From a virus (Duplodnaviria; Heunggongvirae; Uroviricota; Caudoviricetes), in IMG/VR virus record IMGVR_UViG_2541047752_000002: a DNA stretch of 39,757 bases; one strand, given 5' to 3'. The translations under genes and the position numbers were made by a program. The notes beneath the pieces were generated by a model. That model worked only from the letters and a program-made list of their open reading frames with translations. It made no database searches and was not told where the DNA came from. Shown one piece after another: positions 1,419-37,556 of the stretch; the first letter of the stretch is position 1; the number at the start of each line of letters is the position of its first letter.

Positions 1419-2489
1419 TTATTTGATTTCAATTTTGTCCCACTCCCTGCCTCTGTCATCACGATACTGTGATGCCATGGTGTCCGACTTATGCCCGAGA
1501 AGATGTTGAGCAAACTTATCGCTTATCTGCTTCTCATAGAGTCTTGCAGACAAACTGCGCAACTCGTGAAAGGTAGGCGGATCCCCTTCGAAGGAAAGAC
1601 CTGATGCTTTTCGTGCGCGCATAAAATACCTTGATACTGTGCCGGATGAAAGCGGTTCGCGACGAGTAGATGCAATTATGGTTTCTCCGCCAAGAATCTC
1701 TTTGCATTTATCAAGTGTTTCCTTCATTGATATTCCGAGAGCATCAACATGCAATGCTGTTGGGATGGCAATTTTTACGCCTGTTTTGCTTTGCTCGACA
1801 TAAAGATATCCATCTACGATATCAGACCACTTCATTTCGCATAAATCACCAACTCGCTGCCCGGTAACAACAGCCAGTTCCATTGCAAGTCTAAGCCAAC
1901 ATGGTGATGATTCTGCTGCTTGATAAATTTTCAGGTATTCGTCAGCCGTAAGTCTTGATCTCCTTACCTCTGATTTTGCTGCGCGAGTGGCAGCGACCGG
2001 GTTTGTTGTTATATGGCCTTCAGCTATTGCCTCTCGGAATGCATCGCTCAGTGTTGATCTGATTAACTTGGCTGACGCCGCCTTGCCCTCGTCTATGTAT
2101 CCATTGAGCATTGCTGCAATTTCTTTTGTGGTGATGTCTTCAAGTGGAACATCAGGTAGCCCCCTCCTTATTGCTTTAATTTTGCTCATGTAATTTATAA
2201 GTGTCTTCTGCTTGATTCCTCTGCTGGCGAGGATTTTTTCGTAGCGATCAAGCCATGAATGTAACGTAACAGAATTATCACTGTTGATTCTCGCTGTCAG
2301 AGGCTTGTGTTTGTGTCCTGAAAATAACTCAATGTTTGCCTGTATTGCTTCAGTAATTGCTATCCTCCTGTCTCTGCCTAATCCGAACTCTTTACCCGTC
2401 CTTGGGTCCCTGTAGCAGTAATATCCATTGTTTCTTATATAAAGGTTAGGGGGTAAATCCCGGCGCTCATGACTTCGCCTTCTTCCCAT
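1419..2489 (-). CDS. int: Lambda-type integrase (tyrosine recombinase)
   Basis: 356-aa ORF beginning MGRRRSHERRDLPPNLYIRNNGYYCYRDPRTGKEFGLGRD, recognised as lambda Int; adjacent to att P' arm; overlaps xis as in lambda. Confidence 0.97.
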   Translation of the reverse strand: MGRRRSHERRDLPPNLYIRNNGYYCYRDPRTGKEFGLGRDRRIAITEAIQANIELFSGHKHKPLTARINSDNSVTLHSWLDRYEKILASRGIKQKTLINYMSKIKAIRRGLPDVPLEDITTKEIAAMLNGYIDEGKAASAKLIRSTLSDAFREAIAEGHITTNPVAATRAAKSEVRRSRLTADEYLKIYQAAESSPCWLRLAMELAVVTGQRVGDLCEMKWSDIVDGYLYVEQSKTGVKIAIPTALHVDALGISMKETLDKCKEILGGETIIASTRREPLSSGTVSRYFMRARKASGLSFEGDPPTFHELRSLSARLYEKQISDKFAQHLLGHKSDTMASQYRDDRGREWDKIEIK

Positions 2490-6582: not shown

Positions 6583-7257
6583 TTAGGCTTTGATTTTGTA
6601 TCTTCTTGGTTTTCCTGAGAAAATCACAGTTCCAATTATAGAGCAATTACCGTTGATCTTAATGTAAGGCTCAGGCCAGTTTGGGTTTAACGCTTTGAGA
6701 TAACGCTGTGTCCCATCTTCTATCAACCTTTTGAAGGTGGTTTCACCTGTATCGTGCATCAATGCAATAACGTCGTCACCGTGGCAGGCAGGTACTTCAG
6801 GATCGACAAAAATCATGTCTCCCGGGCGGTACTCATCAATCATTGAATCACCTATCACCCGCAAGATATAAGTCATTTCCCCACAGGGTACAGGGCAGGG
6901 ATACGTTTCTGCTGTGCTCAAATCAACCTCAGAATATCCAACTTCTTTCCATGCTCCGGCCTGTACCCATGATATGACAGGGACTAATGTGATTTGTTTA
7001 TTAGTGATTGAAACATCAGGTTTTTTTGTGATGTTCGTTGTCTGGTGTTCTTGATCGAGCCATCCGACAGGCAGGTCGAAACATTTTTCGATGTGTCGTG
7101 CCATGCTGTCACCGATATTTTTAGTAGCACCATCTCCCATAAACCTGCTGGTCTGGGTTGGCTCGCGATCAATCATAGTGGCAAAGGAAGAATTCCCGCC
7201 AACACCATCTCTCAGTTTTCTGGCGTTAGACCGCCGGATGTCATGGATTGTTTTCAT
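6583..7257 (-). CDS. CI-like prophage repressor (HTH plus S24/LexA-type autopeptidase domain)
   Basis: 224-aa ORF; C-terminal S24 peptidase signature (…VIGDSMIDEYRPGDMIFVDP…); divergent from cro across an operator-rich intergenic region; no Shine-Dalgarno, so probably leaderless. Confidence 0.85.
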   Translation of the reverse strand: MKTIHDIRRSNARKLRDGVGGNSSFATMIDREPTQTSRFMGDGATKNIGDSMARHIEKCFDLPVGWLDQEHQTTNITKKPDVSITNKQITLVPVISWVQAGAWKEVGYSEVDLSTAETYPCPVPCGEMTYILRVIGDSMIDEYRPGDMIFVDPEVPACHGDDVIALMHDTGETTFKRLIEDGTQRYLKALNPNWPEPYIKINGNCSIIGTVIFSGKPRRYKIKA

Positions 7258-7579: not shown

Positions 7580-8149
7580 ATGAGGCTAATCGTGGGTAAG
7601 CATCACTGGAAAATAGAAAAACAGCCTGAGTGGTACGTGAAAGCTGTCAGAAAAACTATCGCGGCGTTGCCGGGTGGTTACGCTGAAGCCGCTGACTGGC
7701 TGGATGTAACAGAGAACGCTTTATTCAACCGCCTTCGTGCAGATGGCGATCAGATTTTCCCGCTGGGATGGGCAATGGTTTTACAGCGTGCTGGTGGCAC
7801 TCACTTCATTGCTGATGCTGTGGCGCAGTCTGCAAATGGCGTCTTTGTGTCTCTTCCTGACGTCGAGGATGTGGACAACGCCGATATTAACCAGCGTCTG
7901 CTGGAAGTCATTGAACAGATCGGCAGTTATTCAAAACAGATTCGTTCAGCAATCGAAGACGGTGTAGTGGAACCGCATGAGAAGACAGCAATTAACGACG
8001 AGCTGTATCTCTCAATTTCGAAGCTGCAGGAGCATGCAGCACTTGTCTACAAAATTTTTTGCATTTCAGAAAGTAATGACGCCCGCGAGTGTGCAGCTCC
8101 GGGCGTCGTGGCGTCGATTGCTTCTGGTTGTGGAGAAACTAACGCATGA
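7580..8149 (+). CDS. Early regulatory protein (CII-like/YdaT-like by position)
   Basis: 189-aa ORF directly downstream of cro; family assignment is positional only. Confidence 0.5.
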
Positions 8150-8493: not shown

Positions 8494-9435
8494 ATGAGCA
8501 CTAAATTAACCGGCTATGTATGGGATGGTTGCGCTGCGTCAGGCATGAAGTTATCCAGCGTGGCAATTATGGCCCGCCTGGCTGATTTCAGTAATGACGA
8601 AGGTGTGTGCTGGCCATCAATTGAAACCATTGCCCGCCAGATTGGCGCGGGGATGAGCACCGTCAGAACGGCTATCGCACGGCTGGAAGCGGAAGGCTGG
8701 TTAACGCGTAAGGCGCGTCGCCAGGGTAACCGCAATGCGTCGAATGTTTATCAGCTTAACGTTGCGAAGCTTCAGGCAGCGGCATTTTCTCAACTGTCAG
8801 ATTCTGACCCGTCAAAATCTGACGCATCAAAATCTGACCAGTCAAAATTTGATGCGTCGAAATCTGGCAAAAAAGCGGGTTTTCACCCGTCAGAATCTGG
8901 CGGGGATCCGTCAGTAAAATCAAAACATGATCCGTCAGATAAAAAAACTTCTCGTCCGGACGCTTCGCAACCGGACACGCAGACGGCTGAACAAGAGTTT
9001 TTAACTCGCCATCCTGATGCGGTTGTATTCAGCCCTAAAAAGCGCCAGTGGGGAACGCAGGATGATTTGGCCTGCGCACAGTGGCTCTGGAAAAAAATCA
9101 TCGCTCTGTACGAGCAGGCCGCCGAATGTGACGGCGAAGTGGTACGTCCTAAAGAACCGAACTGGACAGCCTGGGCAAACGAAATTCGCCTGATGTGTGT
9201 ACAGGATGGGCGTACTCATAAACAAATCTGCGAGATGTACAGCCGCGTCAGCCGCGATCCGTTCTGGTGCCGTAACGTGCTCAGCCCGTCGAAGCTGCGG
9301 GAAAAATGGGATGAGCTTTCCCTGCGCTTATCGCCGTCCGTAAGCACGTACACCGAAAAACGCGAAGACCCGTACTTCAAATCCAGTTACGACAACGTGG
9401 ACTACAGCCAGATCCCGGCAGGATTCAGGGGGTGA
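8494..9435 (+). CDS. Replication initiation protein (O-like; N-terminal winged HTH)
   Basis: 313-aa ORF; N-terminal HTH-like segment (…SIETIARQIGAGMSTVRTAIARLEAEGWL…); iteron array inside the gene as in lambda O. Confidence 0.7.
   Translation: MSTKLTGYVWDGCAASGMKLSSVAIMARLADFSNDEGVCWPSIETIARQIGAGMSTVRTAIARLEAEGWLTRKARRQGNRNASNVYQLNVAKLQAAAFSQLSDSDPSKSDASKSDQSKFDASKSGKKAGFHPSESGGDPSVKSKHDPSDKKTSRPDASQPDTQTAEQEFLTRHPDAVVFSPKKRQWGTQDDLACAQWLWKKIIALYEQAAECDGEVVRPKEPNWTAWANEIRLMCVQDGRTHKQICEMYSRVSRDPFWCRNVLSPSKLREKWDELSLRLSPSVSTYTEKREDPYFKSSYDNVDYSQIPAGFRG
8797..8950. repeat. Putative replication origin: iteron array inside the initiator gene, followed by an A-rich tract
   Basis: About 7 tandem ~15-bp repeats (CCGTCAAAATCTGAC, GCATCAAAATCTGAC, CAGTCAAAATTTGATG, CGTCGAAATCTGGC, CCGTCAGAATCTGGC, CCGTCAGTAAAATC, CCGTCAGATAAAAAAA). 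Confidence 0.6.
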
Positions 9436-9920
9436 TTATGAGTCTTTTGAATGAAGTTCAGAAATTCATTGAAGCCCATCCGGGGTGTACTTCCGGAGAC
9501 ATTGCGGATGCTTTTGCAGGTTACTCACGGCAGCGCGTTCTGCAGTCAGCAAGCAAGTTACGTCAGAGTGGGCGTGTGGCTCACCGTTGTGAAGAGGATA
9601 CACGCAGACATTTCCCGCGCCAGGCTGAGATATCGCAGGAGCCGGAACCAGTTTGTGAAACCAGACCTGTGCGCAATTTCTATGTCGGCACTAACGACCC
9701 CCGGGTGATTTTGTGCCTGACCCGCCAGGCTGAAGAACTGGAGTCCAGGGGCTTATTCCGTCGAGCTGCAACGGTGTGGATGGAGGCATTCCGTGAAAGC
9801 CACTCCCAGCCAGAACGAAACAATTTTCTGGCGCGTCGTGAGCGGTGCTTACGGAAAAGCAGCAAGCGCGCTGCATCGGGTGAAGAGTGGTATCTGTCAG
9901 GGAATTACGTGGGGGCTTAA
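9432..9920 (+). CDS. Hypothetical protein with N-terminal winged-HTH-like segment
   Basis: 162-aa ORF; start overlaps upstream stop; stop overlaps next start (TAATG). Confidence 0.5.
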   Translation: MIMSLLNEVQKFIEAHPGCTSGDIADAFAGYSRQRVLQSASKLRQSGRVAHRCEEDTRRHFPRQAEISQEPEPVCETRPVRNFYVGTNDPRVILCLTRQAEELESRGLFRRAATVWMEAFRESHSQPERNNFLARRERCLRKSSKRAASGEEWYLSGNYVGA

Positions 9921-10246
9921 TGACGACGTTAACTCAATGCCAGCAGCAGGTGCTGGATATGCTGATTTCTTACCAGAAAGAACGTGGCTTCCCGCCAACC
10001 AATCAGGAGGTGGCAACCATGCTGGGATACCGTTCAGTGAATGCAGCGGTGGAGCATCTTAGAGCACTGGAGAAAAAAGGCGTCATCACGATAAAGCGTG
10101 GCGTGGCCCGTGGTATCACTCTTCATACCGCGGTGAAGGACGACGACAGCGAGGCGGTCGGGATTATCCGCTCACTGCTTGCCGGTGAGGAAAACGCCAG
10201 GCTGCGTGCAGCCCACTGGTTACATGAGAGGGGCCTGAAAGTATGA
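9920..10246 (+). CDS. LexA N-terminal DNA-binding-domain-like protein (no peptidase domain)
   Basis: 108 aa from ATG 9920 (MTTLTQCQQQVLDMLISYQKERGFPPTNQEVATMLGYRSVNAAVEHLRALEKKGVI…) resembles the LexA winged HTH; ends before any S24 domain. Confidence 0.6.
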   Translation: MTTLTQCQQQVLDMLISYQKERGFPPTNQEVATMLGYRSVNAAVEHLRALEKKGVITIKRGVARGITLHTAVKDDDSEAVGIIRSLLAGEENARLRAAHWLHERGLKV

Positions 10247-10632
10247 AGCTAATACTGCCTTTTCCGCCCAGCGTGAACACGTACTGGCGACACCCCAACA
10301 AAGGGGCGTTTGCTGGTAAGAGCCTGATAAGCGCAGCGGGGCGCAAATTCCAGAGCGCGGCGTGTGCAGCAATAGTTGAGCAGTTACGTCGTCTGCCAAA
10401 ACCAACGTCGGCACCTGCTTCAGTGGAGATCGTGTTGTTTCCTCCGGATAACCGGATCCGCGATCTGGACAACTATAACAAGGCGCTGTTTGACGCCCTG
10501 ACCCACGCGGGTGTGTGGGAAGACGACAGTCAGGTGAAAAGAATGCTGGTGGAGTGGGGACCGGTTATCCCGGAAGGGAAGGTCGAGATCACCATCAGTA
10601 AGTACGAGAAAACGGCGGGTGCAGCCGCCTGA
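10243..10632 (+). CDS. rusA: RusA-family Holliday junction resolvase
   Basis: 129-aa ORF with RusA-like pattern (LPFPPSVNTYWRH… DLDNYNKALFDALTHAGVWEDDSQV). Confidence 0.8.
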   Translation: MKLILPFPPSVNTYWRHPNKGAFAGKSLISAAGRKFQSAACAAIVEQLRRLPKPTSAPASVEIVLFPPDNRIRDLDNYNKALFDALTHAGVWEDDSQVKRMLVEWGPVIPEGKVEITISKYEKTAGAAA

Positions 10633-10651
10633 TCAAGAGGAGAAACGAAGT

Positions 10652-11461
10652 ATGAATAATCTGATGGTCATTGATGGTATTGAAGTTCGTCGTGATGCTT
10701 ATGGGCGTTACAGCCTGAACGATCTGCATCGCGCAGCAGTAGCATCTGGTGCAAATGCCAGAACCAAGGAGCCGGGAAAGTTTCTTTCCAGCCAACAAAC
10801 TGTTGAGCTTGTTCATGAATTGACCAACACCCAGAATTTGGGTGTTGACCCGGTGAGTGTGATTCATGGGGGAAATGAACGGGGAACGTATGTCTGCAAG
10901 GAACTGGTGTATGCCTATGCAATGTGGATCAGCCCGTCATTCCATCTGAAGGTGATCCGTACTTTCGATATGGTAACCAGCGCACCGGAAAAATTATCCG
11001 GACAGGCTGCTGACAAGATGCAGGCTGGCGTGATCCTGCTGGACTTTATGCGCCGGGAGTTAAACCTGTCTAACTCTTCAGTGCTTGGTGCCTGTCAGAA
11101 ACTCCAGGAGGCTGTTGGCTTACCGAATCTGGCACCGCGCTATGCCATTGATGCTCCTGCTGATGCACACGATGGCTCAAGTCGCCCGACACTGTCACTG
11201 AGTGCACTGCTGAAACAGTATGGTATCCGCCTGACGGCTAATCAGGCATATCACCAGATGGTGAAGCTGGGGATCGTCGAGCAGCGCGAACGATACAGCC
11301 GTACCGCGATTAACAACATCAAAAAATTCTGGTCGCTGACAGCGAAAGGCTGCATGTTCGGCAAGAACATCACCAGTCCCGCAAATCCGCGCGAGACGCA
11401 GCCGCATTTCTTCGAATCCCGATTCCCTGAGCTGTTAAAGCTGCTCGATACCGTTCATTGA
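10652..11461 (+). CDS. KilA-N domain protein (antirepressor-like)
   Basis: Start at ATG 10652 with GAGGAG Shine-Dalgarno; N-terminal KilA-N-like segment (…YSLNDLHRAAVASGANARTKEPGKFL…). Confidence 0.6.
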   Translation: MNNLMVIDGIEVRRDAYGRYSLNDLHRAAVASGANARTKEPGKFLSSQQTVELVHELTNTQNLGVDPVSVIHGGNERGTYVCKELVYAYAMWISPSFHLKVIRTFDMVTSAPEKLSGQAADKMQAGVILLDFMRRELNLSNSSVLGACQKLQEAVGLPNLAPRYAIDAPADAHDGSSRPTLSLSALLKQYGIRLTANQAYHQMVKLGIVEQRERYSRTAINNIKKFWSLTAKGCMFGKNITSPANPRETQPHFFESRFPELLKLLDTVH

Positions 11462-11462
11462 G

Positions 11463-12458
11463 GTGACCGTGAGAGCACTACTGACCCCTGAAATTGCCCC
11501 GCGTATGGGGATCGTATTGTTCAGGCCAGGTTCAGAGCTGATGCCCCTGTTTATGCAGGGGCGTGTCCTGCTGGAGCCTGAGCCGGAACGTTATTCATCT
11601 TTCGCCAGTGGTGCCGTTCCGGCGGCATCACAACCGCTGGCGGATGATCCTGCCGTTCGGGCCGTGTTCCGCAATGAGGCAGTGATCCGTCGTGCTGGTG
11701 GCGTGGAATGTCTTGAAAGCTGGTTACTTCGTGAAAAGGGCTGTCAGTGGCCTCATTCCGACTGGCACAGTGAGAACATGACCACAATGCGGCACGCTCC
11801 GGGCGCAATCCGTCTGTGCTGGCACTGCGATAACCAGCTGCGTGACCAGTTCACGGAACGGCTGGAATCAATGGCAACGGATAACTGTGCCCGTTGGGTG
11901 TTGTCTGTTGTGCGTCGGGATCTCGGTTTTGATGACAGTCACGTTGTGACAATGCCGGAACTGTGCTGGTGGCTGATTCGTAATGACCTGGCGGATGCCT
12001 TACCGGAAAGTGCAGCCCGTAAGGCACTGAGATTACCGAAGCCTGTTGTGCCGTCTGTCACCCGGGAAAGTGACCTTGTGCCTTCGGTTCCTGCCACCAG
12101 CATCATCCAGGATAAGGCGAAAAAGGTGCTGGCGCTGAAAGTGGATCCGGAGTCGCCGGAGTCTTTTATGTTACGCCCAAAACGTCGCCGCTGGGTTAAT
12201 GAAAAGTACACGCGCTGGGTTAAGACACAGCCGTGTGCATGTTGTGGAAAGCCTGCTGATGATCCCCACCACCTGATAGGTCACGGTCAGGGTGGAATGG
12301 GTACAAAAGCGCATGACCTCTTTGTGTTGCCATTGTGCAGAAAGCATCACGACGAGCTGCATGCGGACACCGTGGCGTTTGAAGAGAAGTATGGTTCCCA
12401 ACTGGAGCTGATTTTTCGATTTATCGATCGCGCGCTGGCAATTGGTGTGCTGGCCTGA
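11463..12458 (+). CDS. DUF968-family protein with C-terminal Cys/His (HNH-like) motif
   Basis: 331-aa ORF; C-terminus …CACCGKPADDPHHLIGHGQGGMGTKAHDLFVLPLCRKHHDELH…; Nin-region position. Confidence 0.6.
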   Translation: MTVRALLTPEIAPRMGIVLFRPGSELMPLFMQGRVLLEPEPERYSSFASGAVPAASQPLADDPAVRAVFRNEAVIRRAGGVECLESWLLREKGCQWPHSDWHSENMTTMRHAPGAIRLCWHCDNQLRDQFTERLESMATDNCARWVLSVVRRDLGFDDSHVVTMPELCWWLIRNDLADALPESAARKALRLPKPVVPSVTRESDLVPSVPATSIIQDKAKKVLALKVDPESPESFMLRPKRRRWVNEKYTRWVKTQPCACCGKPADDPHHLIGHGQGGMGTKAHDLFVLPLCRKHHDELHADTVAFEEKYGSQLELIFRFIDRALAIGVLA

Positions 12459-12475
12459 TTTTGTGGAGAGATTTG

Positions 12476-12829
12476 ATGCGTGATATGTACGAGGTGTTAG
12501 ACCGCTGGGGAGCATGGGCAGCAGCAGATAACAGCGGTGTGGACTGGCAGCCGATAGCGGCTGGTTTCAAGGGGCTTTTACCTCATGGTAAAAAAACACG
12601 CCTTCAGTGTGATGATGATGAAGGCATCATGATAGATAGTTGTGTGGCTAGGTTGCGTAAATATAAGTCAGAAGATTACGAGCTGATAATCGCCCACTTT
12701 GTTATTGGAATTTCGCTCCGTACAATTGCAAAGAAGCGGAAATGTTCTGATGGTACTTTACGTAAAGAATTGATTGGCGCTATAGCTTTCATTGAAGGGG
12801 TAATGTCAATGATTAAATTTTCTGATTAG
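12476..12829 (+). CDS. Late-gene antiterminator Q (QuuD/phage-82-type family)
   Basis: 117 aa from ATG 12476 (MRDMYEVLDRWGAWAAADNSGVDWQPIAAGFKGLL…) resembles remembered QuuD; GGAGAG Shine-Dalgarno; track ORF starts at in-frame TTG 12461. Confidence 0.75.
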   Translation: MRDMYEVLDRWGAWAAADNSGVDWQPIAAGFKGLLPHGKKTRLQCDDDEGIMIDSCVARLRKYKSEDYELIIAHFVIGISLRTIAKKRKCSDGTLRKELIGAIAFIEGVMSMIKFSD

Positions 12830-12859: not shown

Positions 12860-13825
12860 TCAGAATCGCCCTTTTATTGCTAAATTACGATAATAAACAC
12901 CTAATGCAGTAAGTCGGCATCCAGTTGAATTTATCGCAGCATAGTACATATGTTCAGTATCAACCGGCTCAACCAGTCCGTGGCGGTTACATTTTTGTAG
13001 ATTTTGAAAAATTGATACATTTTCATCAATCGGTGATTCGGAAGTTGGTTCAAAGCTAGGATCTAAATGGAATACATGTGTAGCTGTTGGGAACCATACG
13101 GGCAATTTGCGAAGAGTATCCAAAGACACTCTTGGTCCTACCTCTCTCAGAACAACAAATCGAGAAACATTTGTTTTAAAGACTGGGCGCTGATCCCACG
13201 CCCCCAATGCTTGATCCACAAAGCTATACAGACTACTTGGAGTAATATAACCTAATATATTAGCTCCTGCGCCATACAAAGCTTCGACCATTAATGAAGT
13301 AAATACTCCACCATCATTAACTTCTTTGGCATACTCATCTCGTCTACATGCAGTAAGGATGGTAGAGCCATCTGCAAGTACAGTTTCTCCTCCTTTTAGC
13401 ATTCTTTCCTGGCCAGCGGCCCCAGCCTGACAGCAGTCGAGAATAATAATTTTATTGCGTATGTTAGTTGCTTTATTAGCCCAAACCATAACATCACTTA
13501 TTCTTATGCCATTACTTGATCTTGGCGAAAAGTCATGTGGAATCAACATTCCTTCATCAATGTTATTATCAAAATATCCATGTCCAGCAAAGTAAAATAA
13601 TGCAACATCACACTCTCCAGAAAAAAGATTCTGAATTTCATATTCAAGGAAATCTTTGTTGAGGGGGGTTGCACTACAGTGTGTAAGTGTTCTAGCCTCG
13701 AAATTAGGCCTCCCATCGGCGTGTCTAGATAATGCTTCTGCCATTTTTGCAGCATCATTTTCACATCCGCTGAGAGCATCTAATTCAGCATACTCATTGA
13801 TCCCAATAAATAGTGCTTTTTTCAT
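12860..13825 (-). CDS. Caspase-like (peptidase C14 family) cysteine protease with C-terminal extension of unknown function
   Basis: 321 aa from ATG 13825; motifs KKALFIGINEY…GCENDAAKMAEAL, His in FYFAGHGY, Cys in IILDCCQAG (intact His/Cys dyad); AGGAG Shine-Dalgarno overlaps the stop of the upstream TIR-like gene; AT-richer than flanking phage genes. Confidence 0.75.
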   Translation of the reverse strand: MKKALFIGINEYAELDALSGCENDAAKMAEALSRHADGRPNFEARTLTHCSATPLNKDFLEYEIQNLFSGECDVALFYFAGHGYFDNNIDEGMLIPHDFSPRSSNGIRISDVMVWANKATNIRNKIIILDCCQAGAAGQERMLKGGETVLADGSTILTACRRDEYAKEVNDGGVFTSLMVEALYGAGANILGYITPSSLYSFVDQALGAWDQRPVFKTNVSRFVVLREVGPRVSLDTLRKLPVWFPTATHVFHLDPSFEPTSESPIDENVSIFQNLQKCNRHGLVEPVDTEHMYYAAINSTGCRLTALGVYYRNLAIKGRF

Positions 13826-13835
13826 ATGGAAGCTC

Positions 13836-14237
13836 CTAAGCCAGCTCACGAATGGCAGAAACGATGCTTTCTGTATTCCACTTGACGATTTTGTGAGCGG
13901 CTTGCTTAACTTTCATAGACGTACGCTCGGAGCCCCAAGGCTCAATGGCAATAATTGGCTTTCTATATTCTTGAGCTATTCGGATCTCTGCATCAATCCA
14001 TTTGCTGTAGCTGGCATATACACCAGCCAAAATAATTACAACACTTGATGGTGCCATTTGTGATCTTATAGCAGAGTAAAGTGCAAAATCATCTTGGGCA
14101 CCAATTATTGGATCAACTCTGGGTACCGAGTAGTTCTTAAAGTTGAAATACCCACGATTCTTGAGAAGAGCCACAAGCTGTTCATAAGTGTTTGAATATT
14201 TCCAAGAGTGACTAATAAATAGATTAAAAGTTCTCAT
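13836..14237 (-). CDS. Minimal TIR-like domain protein (ThsB/DUF1863-like)
   Basis: 133-aa ORF; N-terminal FNLFISHSWKY strand motif and downstream SKWIDAEIRIA with a candidate catalytic Glu; GGAGAG Shine-Dalgarno; translationally coupled to the caspase-like gene. Confidence 0.65.
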   Translation of the reverse strand: MRTFNLFISHSWKYSNTYEQLVALLKNRGYFNFKNYSVPRVDPIIGAQDDFALYSAIRSQMAPSSVVIILAGVYASYSKWIDAEIRIAQEYRKPIIAIEPWGSERTSMKVKQAAHKIVKWNTESIVSAIRELA

Positions 14238-36098: not shown

Positions 36099-37556
36099 TT
36101 ATTTGACGTAAATGTGGTTTCTGTATTTGACAAAAATCACATCACACACGCTTTCAATATCTTCAGGTTGACCATAAATTTTCTTCACAATATTCAATTG
36201 TTCTTTATTCTCAAGAATAAAGAAATTATTTCCTTTGTTATACCATTCGCTATTTGTAAGCCAGTTATCTCTTTTTATTTCATTGTTATTAAAAAGTATA
36301 TTTGCTATTTTTATGTCTCCATTCACACCAACAGAGTTAGTAAATGTGAAAGGGGCATATCCATAATTTGCTTTGTGCTCGTTGATTTTTTCTCTAATAC
36401 ATGACATCTGATTGTATCTATTATCAGTGGAGCCATTAATATTTATTGTTTTAATTCCTGATATTATACCCAAAAAAGCTATTAATAAAATAATGCTTTT
36501 TTTATTAAATTTAGATCTTGACAAAAGAATTACTGCCATAATGAAGACGGGAACAAGGTATCTTATTGTCCATATATTTCTTGGGAGGTTACTACCAATA
36601 TAAGCAGATGTCATGATTAAAATAGACAATGACAAACATATATCAATAACGCTTCTGTTTTTAAAAAGATTTCTGAAAGTGAAGTAAATTAATGCAACAA
36701 CACCAGCAAAGCGTATTGCTTTAGATAATAGATGCAGTGATGGTGTTATTTGCTCACCAAATATGTTTGCATTAAAAAACAATAAAGTTCCGCTTACTGC
36801 AGTATTTATATTAACTAAAATATTGTCATACTCAACAATCTTTACATCTGTTAGTCCTGGCAATGTAAAGCTTCCAAGGTTTAAAAACAAAAAACCGATC
36901 GCCTTGGAAATTAAATATGAAGAAAACAATCCAGCCATTATAATAAGGTATTTCTTTTTTCTTTCCTTGTGCAACAAAAATATTGCTGCTAATGTTAGCG
37001 GTGCAACGTATATATAGACTGAGATATTATCGCTAAAAATAGCCATAGAGGATAGTATGGTTGAAAAGTATACAAATAATATATTTTCTGTTTTAATATA
37101 CTTTTCTGTAAATATTAAGCATCCAATGATAAATATGTATGTACCCATGTGAATGCACGCTGAAAGCATTGATGTAACAGCCATGTCAGCAGGGAAAACA
37201 AAGTAGAATATAATTAGCGCTAATGCTAATGATTTATTTGTAGACAGCCTGTATATCAAAAATATCACAGTAGCATACATCGCTGGTGGTATTATATATG
37301 CAAGCTCACTGCTGTAGCCAAATAATATAGAGGCGATCGCATAAAAAGATACTTCTGTAAAGTAAAAAGGAACCGTGGATAGCATCCATCCATGAAGTAA
37401 GTAATTACCTTCTGACATATCCTTACCAAGCAAAAGCACTGTTGCCGCATCTGTATTTGGTGGGAATATGTTTAAGCTGGCAAAGTGATATAGCATAAAC
37501 AATGACGCAAATAATAAAATCACGAATATAAATTTAATTTGTTTTTTGAAAATCAT
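36099..37556 (-). CDS. Serotype-specific O-antigen glucosyltransferase (Gtr type, polytopic membrane protein)
   Basis: 485-aa very hydrophobic AT-rich ORF immediately downstream of gtrA-gtrB. Confidence 0.75.
   Translation of the reverse strand: MIFKKQIKFIFVILLFASLFMLYHFASLNIFPPNTDAATVLLLGKDMSEGNYLLHGWMLSTVPFYFTEVSFYAIASILFGYSSELAYIIPPAMYATVIFLIYRLSTNKSLALALIIFYFVFPADMAVTSMLSACIHMGTYIFIIGCLIFTEKYIKTENILFVYFSTILSSMAIFSDNISVYIYVAPLTLAAIFLLHKERKKKYLIIMAGLFSSYLISKAIGFLFLNLGSFTLPGLTDVKIVEYDNILVNINTAVSGTLLFFNANIFGEQITPSLHLLSKAIRFAGVVALIYFTFRNLFKNRSVIDICLSLSILIMTSAYIGSNLPRNIWTIRYLVPVFIMAVILLSRSKFNKKSIILLIAFLGIISGIKTININGSTDNRYNQMSCIREKINEHKANYGYAPFTFTNSVGVNGDIKIANILFNNNEIKRDNWLTNSEWYNKGNNFFILENKEQLNIVKKIYGQPEDIESVCDVIFVKYRNHIYVK

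Follow-up and report, generated by a model that had tools for sequence, protein, structure and literature searches.

A stand-alone LexA-type winged helix with a hairpin tail in the nin region of a lambdoid prophage, a candidate RecA-insensitive SOS-box repressor

A LexA-type gene in the early-right operon

The window analysed here, that is the whole 39,757-nt stretch of IMG/VR record IMGVR_UViG_2541047752_000002, is a lambdoid prophage of the SfV/SfIV-like kind and carries, in its early-right operon, a gene of 108 codons for a LexA-like protein that we call mini-LexA. The operon runs in the order replication gene, PerC-like gene, mini-LexA, RusA, KilA-N, DUF968 and Q (coordinates in Table 1). 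Because the start and stop codons of mini-LexA overlap those of its neighbours and no sigma-70-like promoter was detected near it on the + strand, we read mini-LexA as belonging to the delayed-early genes in the rightward operon's nin region, translationally coupled to the genes on both sides. The protein is probably made by the developing phage rather than by the quiescent prophage; an internal promoter serving the gene in the lysogen was rejected on the same negative result for the + strand. An upstream GTG start at 9887, which would yield 119 amino acids (aa), is unsupported, as the family alignment begins at M1, like LexA.

A preliminary description, made from the sequence of the window alone, had likened the 108-aa product to the N-terminal winged helix-turn-helix (HTH) of LexA and held that it lacks the S24 autopeptidase domain. 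Both points are confirmed by profile, sequence and structure comparisons. Specifically, the Pfam profile PF01726 (LexA_DNA_bind) is matched by residues 1-65 over its entire length (positions 1-65 of 65; 69 bits against a cutoff of 23.7; E 2.9e-19), and the alignment with the LexA N-terminal domain that the description had proposed gives 43% identity to Escherichia coli LexA in BLASTP (mini-LexA 1-90 against LexA 1-86, E 1e-21). The top matches of a sequence search against the Protein Data Bank are all LexA (the DNA-binding domain 1LEA and full-length LexA). Two AlphaFold (AF2) models concur in a three-helix winged HTH with a predicted local confidence (pLDDT) of about 85-88, and Foldseek places the model on DNA-bound LexA (3JSO) with a root-mean-square deviation of 1.0 Å over 67-68 residues at 50% identity, the range for 3JSO and 1LEA together being 1.0-1.2 Å.

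For the peptidase, the Pfam scan of mini-LexA gave no match to PF00717 (S24 peptidase), the protein ending at residue 108, and the NCBIfam model TIGR00498 (lexA) is matched only over positions 1-91 of 203, with 70.8 bits, under its cutoff of 110.95. Its sequence lacks both an S24 domain and a conserved cleavage site and scores below the curated cutoff, and on these grounds mini-LexA does not appear to be a canonical LexA. The profile of PHROG 362, labelled 'transcriptional repressor', aligns with the whole protein (residues 1-108 against 1-106 of 106, E 1.4e-59). Membership in a defence system was considered and rejected, PADLOC having returned only a weak match at the level of the winged HTH (E 3.6e-4). 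The characterization as a stand-alone DNA-binding domain holds in so far as there is a winged helix without S24, and it overlooked a conserved linker and a helical-hairpin tail.

Linker and two-helix tail

Residues 71-75, within the linker, have pLDDT values below 50 in both AlphaFold models, and the two-helix hairpin that follows reaches about 85 (AF2). Because the overall predicted template modelling score is only 0.53-0.56, the tail is best taken, on these models, as an independent module tethered to the DNA-binding domain. Its pattern EAxxhhRxLhxxxxxAxxxAxxxL is retained in relatives at only 40-50% identity.

In HMMER and BLAST alignments, homology to LexA continues through the hinge up to the position of the cleavage site, where LLAGEE of mini-LexA stands opposite VAAGEP of LexA and A88-G89 is aligned with LexA A84-G85. 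This extended homology, together with the conservation of the tail, would suit a protein-protein decoy, whose hinge and tail dock as a pseudo-substrate, either on RecA* or on the S24 domain that LexA and cI carry, and alter cleavage rates; relatives described below are moreover co-encoded with DinI and RecA, acting on the RecA filament. We nevertheless consider a decoy improbable. The Ala-Gly pair varies among relatives (LLANEE, LLVGEE, MIADEP), the region is predicted to be helical in mini-LexA, as opposed to strand-loop in LexA, and the DNA-binding domain, not the tail, is the most constrained part of the protein. Given the unconserved Ala-Gly pair and the predicted helix, the LLAGEE stretch is read from the alignments as an ancestral vestige rather than a site of cleavage.

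A hairpin of 28 residues whose hydrophobic face is broad is not likely to be stable on its own, and we therefore infer that it is an oligomerisation module, which would dimerise the protein in place of the lost S24 domain. A sister form fits the notion of a swappable module of this kind: in the relatives' loci (numbered with the prefix L), a 158-aa variant occupies the same slot before RusA in L005 (5001-5474), and likewise in L006-L012, combining the same LexA DNA-binding domain with another, unannotated C-terminal domain of ~90 aa (phrog_29443, phrog_24920). Separately, several database proteins of 140-350 aa carry two LexA DNA-binding domains per chain (P0132, P0133, P0148, P0152, P0153, P0155 and others), and these may be single-chain pseudo-dimers.

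DNA-recognition residues

Five residues of E. coli LexA, S39, N41, A42, E44 and E45, are reported to be involved in DNA binding in the part of PMC13416735 that quotes Knegtel et al., and Asn41 contacts operator DNA in the crystal structure as cited in PMC5999292. Four of the five (S39, N41, A42 and E45), as well as H46, are retained in mini-LexA. S39 and N41 do not vary across the family alignments, A42 and E45 are retained in the window's clade, and the recognition helix of the Enterobacter/Cedecea clade, SPNAAAEHLKAL, is almost identical to that of LexA. The BLASTP alignment also places Val at LexA E44, Val at P40 and Asn at R28.

These three changes set mini-LexA apart from LexA and bring in a rival explanation, under which the protein is a phage regulator with diverged DNA specificity that activates or represses a phage promoter within developmental timing, in the manner of gp6 of phage GIL01. 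The precedent of gp6, a truncated LexA homologue with a non-SOS site (PMC6182141), speaks for it, as do the variation of positions 44-46 between subclades, the lack of a canonical SOS box in the window prophage and the wide occurrence of stand-alone LexA DNA-binding domains in unrelated phages. We regard a diverged specificity as possible, yet on the unlikely side, given that S39, N41, A42 and E45 are retained, that the Enterobacter/Cedecea helix stays near that of LexA, that late genes are already served by the Q antiterminator, and that the relatives associate with SOS boxes, DinI and RecA, not with late promoters.

Selection, spread and prior labels

Compared with close copies, mini-LexA has a ratio of nonsynonymous to synonymous substitution rates (dN/dS) of about 0.13, with a dN of about 0.007 in the DNA-binding domain versus about 0.03 in the tail; compared with distant relatives, synonymous sites are saturated and the full-length architecture is retained. 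The length is steady at 106-108 aa, with the tail conserved at 40-90% identity, in Escherichia, Shigella, Salmonella, Citrobacter, Hafnia, Leclercia and Kosakonia. mini-LexA is a real, working gene under purifying selection.

It is also a common one. The gene occurs in 2233 of 5426 complete E. coli genomes (~41%), with 90-99% nucleotide identity and up to four copies per genome, and among the phages that carry it are SfV (orf42), SfII, SfIV, mEp460, mEp390, cdtI, 1720a-02 and many Shiga toxin (Stx) phages of the Stx2c and Stx2a types. Relatives were found in Shigella, Salmonella, Citrobacter, Hafnia, Leclercia, Kosakonia, Klebsiella, Raoultella, Enterobacter and Cedecea, although a scan of genome contigs with a single peptide pattern returned no Salmonella locus, and a search of 1.84 billion representative proteins recovered full-length relatives with 40-52% identity. 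Stand-alone LexA DNA-binding domains are, more generally, common in predicted viral proteomes from many unrelated phages.

That mini-LexA could be a decaying, functionless remnant of a full-length LexA-like repressor gene is suggested by its being a truncated version of a larger protein and by the many fragmentary copies in the databases. The constant length, the conserved tail, the low dN/dS, the coupling to both neighbours and the presence of the gene, at high nucleotide identity, in 41% of complete E. coli genomes make a remnant scarcely credible, and a pseudogene reading was rejected on the grounds of selection and spread.

The exact 108-aa protein is present on at least 1000 public contigs and is named 'LexA family transcriptional regulator'. 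Since databases already label the protein as a LexA family regulator or PHROG 362 repressor, the sequence observation itself is not new. No functional study of the lambdoid or enterobacterial mini-LexA family was found in the literature, subscription journals lying mostly outside the search. What appears to be undescribed in the literature searched is the architecture of winged HTH, hinge and hairpin, the fixed place in enterobacterial nin regions, and the operons with SOS boxes, DinI and RecA in which the long-form relatives lie.

SOS boxes in the window

No exact CTGT-N8-ACAG occurs in the window, and its 19 one-mismatch occurrences, with 12.8 expected, are not above chance. Scores were also computed with an SOS matrix built from 20 E. 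coli LexA operators that themselves score 13.5-27 bits; the best site in the window reaches 9.1 bits, and the mean maximum in shuffled sequences is 12.6. An SOS target in cis was rejected on these three results. As there is no cis SOS box, any LexA-like action in this prophage would be purely in trans, on operators of the host or of other mobile elements. The preliminary description had proposed that a protein able to bind SOS boxes without being cleavable through RecA would let the prophage modulate the host SOS response or its own induction; the latter proposal loses ground, in that direct control through cis LexA sites is unlikely, with no SOS box present and a cI that has its own S24 domain.

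Two copies of CGCTGGGTTAA, 24 bp apart, lie in the DUF968 gene (12189-12232, + strand) and give the second-best of the weak matrix scores in the window. In the protein they correspond to an RWV peptide motif that is repeated, and the likeliest reading is a repeat of the coding sequence rather than an operator.

Relatives in SOS-box operons

The loci of relatives show two arrangements. Relatives of the short form (106-116 aa), to which the window's copy belongs, lie in nin regions, usually directly 5' of RusA, followed by DUF968 and Q, and the order of mini-LexA then RusA is repeated in the distant loci L003, L005, L010 and L041. Relatives of the long form (130-135 aa) have an N-terminal extension and align with mini-LexA end to end, tail included; they belong to prophages of Klebsiella, Raoultella, Enterobacter and Cedecea, and a long-form relative likewise falls in phrog_362.

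Of the 34 viral loci retrieved with P0137, 28 have a near-consensus SOS box 440-1900 bp upstream of the long-form gene, as do all three long-form genome loci (L048, L049, L058), counts to be read against about one chance match of at least 20 bits expected in the roughly 0.5 Mb scanned and as coming from mutually related loci, not from independent events. These boxes score 17-30 bits (for example TACTGTTTATTTATACAGTA), and the Gifsy-2 LexA box, genetically validated by Lemire et al. (PMC3121763) and used as a positive control, scores 24.5 bits on the same matrix.

The long-form layout consists of a terminator hairpin, a promoter overlapping the SOS box, a gene for DinI or RecA, a small open reading frame (ORF) of phrog_1813 and, last, mini-LexA. 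The DinI homologue of these operons matches PF06183 (E 8e-22). In L039, a full-length phage RecA (3536-4680; PF00154, E 2.6e-130) stands behind two adjacent SOS boxes and is followed by the small ORF and mini-LexA, and the RecA arrangement recurs in L030, about 1.9 kb upstream of its mini-LexA. The small ORF, of 77-96 aa and with no Pfam match (L026 4604-4891, L014 4713-4958, L039 4725-4955), is always directly upstream of the long-form mini-LexA, with a GTG start as called in L026 and L014. By its position it could be an antirepressor; compared with GftA of Gifsy, it shows no BLASTP similarity and belongs to a different PHROG.

These layouts show that the genes of the long clade are SOS-induced and travel together with two modulators already known to act on the RecA/LexA axis. 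This family context, the strongest functional clue to mini-LexA, ties the family to SOS control.

Two further kinds of SOS-box-like sites were observed in the loci of relatives. A near-consensus SOS box, TACTGTTTTTA(C/T)ATACAGTA, of 24-27 bits lies within the coding sequence of one cI allele, S24-type and of 230 aa, in the linker between HTH and peptidase (L001 2722-2741, L057 2097-2116, L050 1865-1884); although the local amino acids differ, the box is conserved in mEp460 and in one prophage each of Shigella flexneri and Citrobacter, and the cI of the window is without it. Downstream of the mini-LexA gene, a palindrome TACTGTAAAAATA.ACAGTG of 21-24 bits recurs (L001 11773-11792; L005 9259, L015 9553, L016 8434, L017 9660, L039 7943, L042 8824), and in mEp460, where a DNA methylase gene stands between Q and the holin gene, it begins 9 nt past the first base of that gene's start codon. 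This palindrome may be either a genuine LexA site or a coincidence of the coding sequence, passed on with the gene.

Other features of the window

The prophage's right end, after the lysis, head and tail genes, holds three ORFs whose position alone suggests O-antigen modification (gtr) genes (Table 1). The PerC-like protein encoded just upstream of mini-LexA has a weak MarR-like winged helix at its N-terminus, and in most E. coli relatives a Dam methylase gene, absent from the window, stands between the PerC-like gene and mini-LexA. Between the Q antiterminator and the holin gene, two ORFs on the - strand (12860-14237) run opposite to the late operon: one encodes a caspase-like protein of 329 aa (Peptidase_C14, E 1.3e-17; PADLOC 'caspase', E 1.7e-19) and the other a ThsB-type TIR protein of 133 aa (PF08937, E 3.9e-18; PADLOC ThsB, E 2e-12). 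This pair probably forms an anti-phage defence cassette that the prophage carries in a moron slot, where a closely related E. coli prophage has other genes.

Table 1 Coordinates of mini-LexA, its domains and other features of the window
Feature	Position	Strand	Details
Integrase	1419-2489		
S24-type cI	6583-7257		own S24 domain
CII-like gene	7580-8149		
Replication gene, HTH_36 domain	8494-9435		
PerC-like (YfdN) gene	9432-9920	+	PF06069, E 7.7e-9; TAA shares one base with the mini-LexA ATG (TAATG)
GGGGG Shine-Dalgarno-like run	9912-9916	+	ends 3 nt 5' of the mini-LexA ATG; read from sequence
mini-LexA coding sequence	9920-10246	+	108 codons plus TGA; ATG at 9920, TGA at 10244-10246
LexA-type winged HTH, codons 1-68	9920-10123	+	helices 6-22, 28-35, 40-52; strands 56-58, 66-68
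Recognition helix VNAAVEHLRALEK, codons 40-52	10037-10075	+	LexA counterpart PNAAEEHLKALAR
Acidic flexible linker HTAVKDD, codons 69-75	10124-10144	+	homologous to the LexA hinge
Two-helix hairpin tail, codons 76-108	10145-10243	+	helices 76-87, 93-103
RusA Holliday-junction resolvase gene	10243-10632	+	PF05866, E 6.1e-15; ATG overlaps the mini-LexA TGA (ATGA)
KilA-N gene	10619-11461		
DUF968/HNH gene	11463-12458		
Q antiterminator	12461-12829		PF06530
Three ORFs, right end	36099-38832	-	candidate gtr genes by position

Proposed mechanism

We favour, at a probability of roughly one half (about 0.5), the reading that mini-LexA is a RecA-insensitive SOS-box repressor made during lytic development. 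It starts from the fold, the loss of the peptidase, the conserved contact residues, the operon position, the selection and the SOS-operon context of the relatives set out above, and its further steps of dimerisation, SOS-box binding, stability and physiological role would run as follows. Infection, or the RecA*-driven cleavage of the S24-type cI that the phage itself encodes, would be followed by transcription of the rightward operon, and mini-LexA would accumulate, dimerise through its hairpin and occupy host-type SOS boxes (CTGT-N8-ACAG). Having neither an autocleavage domain nor an exposed end recognised by ClpX, it would persist while RecA* is active. The SOS regulon would then be re-repressed, and with it LexA-gated elements such as antirepressor-type prophages (Gifsy, 186) and colicin operons. 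The protein of the long clade would, in addition, shut off its own SOS-induced operon in a negative feedback; an uncleavable LexA-derived protein encoded at the end of a LexA-gated operon would be a natural design for RecA-independent re-repression.

Several points weigh against SOS-box repression by mini-LexA. The isolated DNA-binding domain of LexA binds weakly, and strong binding would depend on dimerisation by the tail. DNA specificity may have drifted, with E44V, P40V and R28N in the window's protein and variable positions 44-46 in other subclades (AVALHL, AAADML, SARDTL). The SOS-operon context comes from relatives that are only 40-45% identical, and a place behind an SOS box amounts to regulation by host LexA, not to binding by the product. 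The window's own clade is without a cis SOS box and without a DinI or RecA partner: a tblastn search of the window for DinI, orfX (phrog_1813) and GftA returned nothing better than E 0.1. Lastly, gp6, the only characterised truncated LexA of a phage, acts as an activator, and the site it binds is a different one (PMC6182141).

Significance

The SOS response governs prophage induction, Shiga-toxin release, mutagenesis and antibiotic tolerance, and its off-switch is normally lifted only via RecA-driven cleavage of LexA. If mini-LexA acts as proposed, SOS control would have a second, phage-owned layer in a large part of the strains of E. coli, Shigella and their relatives. A bolder extension, which we put forward as speculative and rather doubtful, is that mini-LexA serves as a weapon between genetic elements, a RecA-proof substitute for LexA that re-closes every LexA-gated switch in the cell, among them co-resident prophages' antirepressor operons, the lysis operons of colicins, SOS-induced toxins, SOS-gated defences and the repair and mutagenesis genes of the host. 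On this extension the gene, by its frequency in E. coli and its presence in Stx2 phages, would modify SOS output, cross-induction between prophages and possibly Shiga-toxin dynamics on a wide scale and without having been recognised. If mini-LexA instead recognises another site, it would be the second independent case, after GIL01 gp6, in which a phage has taken over a LexA domain for a regulator.

Comparison with known systems

The nearest counterpart of mini-LexA is the N-terminal domain of E. coli LexA, or the LexA(1-84) fragment, with which it shares the winged helix, the homology of the hinge and residues S39, N41, A42 and E45. The N-terminal domain of cleaved LexA keeps some SOS-box binding and repression, and its removal by ClpXP is needed for SOS induction (PMC10584840). 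Unlike that fragment, mini-LexA is encoded as a stand-alone protein, carries a 33-residue hairpin tail and has no cleavage-generated terminus recognised by ClpX. Compared with LexA as a whole, it is without the S24 domain, the Ser/Lys dyad and a conserved Ala-Gly, and it differs at E44, P40 and R28.

Among phage proteins, gp6 of GIL01, a tectivirus of Bacillus thuringiensis, resembles mini-LexA in being a LexA DNA-binding domain without peptidase, from a temperate phage, expressed with early genes; it binds GaCACAn nTGTGaC and activates a late promoter (PMC6182141). By contrast with mini-LexA, which adds the tail and keeps the recognition residues of enterobacterial LexA, gp6 has 66 aa, consists of the winged helix only and binds a non-SOS site. 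The late genes also differ in their control, the mini-LexA phage being lambdoid and using Q, whereas gp6 activates the GIL01 late promoter. BLASTP between gp6 and mini-LexA gave no alignment at E up to 100, and a common origin was rejected for lack of sequence similarity. Because mini-LexA is 43% identical to LexA and has no detectable similarity to gp6, we conclude that it is an independent truncation of an enterobacterial-type LexA, its winged-helix domain being of the gammaproteobacterial kind.

The LexA-controlled dinI-antirepressor operons of the Gifsy prophages (PMC3121763) are built as the same kind of unit as the long-clade loci, with a terminator, a LexA-box promoter, a dinI homologue, a small ORF and a third gene. 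In Gifsy-2, however, the third gene, the 'irsA homologue' STM1020, encodes a DUF1367 protein (PF07105, E 4e-98) without a LexA domain, and the window's own copy of mini-LexA lies outside any dinI operon of the Gifsy type. An identity of mini-LexA with Salmonella IrsA was rejected on the DUF1367 assignment of STM1020, and the reported lack of an induction phenotype in irsA deletions therefore does not apply to mini-LexA.

In its expected outcome, SOS genes repressed despite the activation of RecA, mini-LexA would resemble the non-cleavable lexA3 (Ind-) allele, DinI and GIL01 gp7. The lexA3 allele blocks Gifsy induction (PMC3121763), and gp7 strengthens LexA binding and blocks LexA cleavage (PMC4551915). 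By contrast, all three act through host LexA or RecA, and mini-LexA would itself replace LexA on the DNA.

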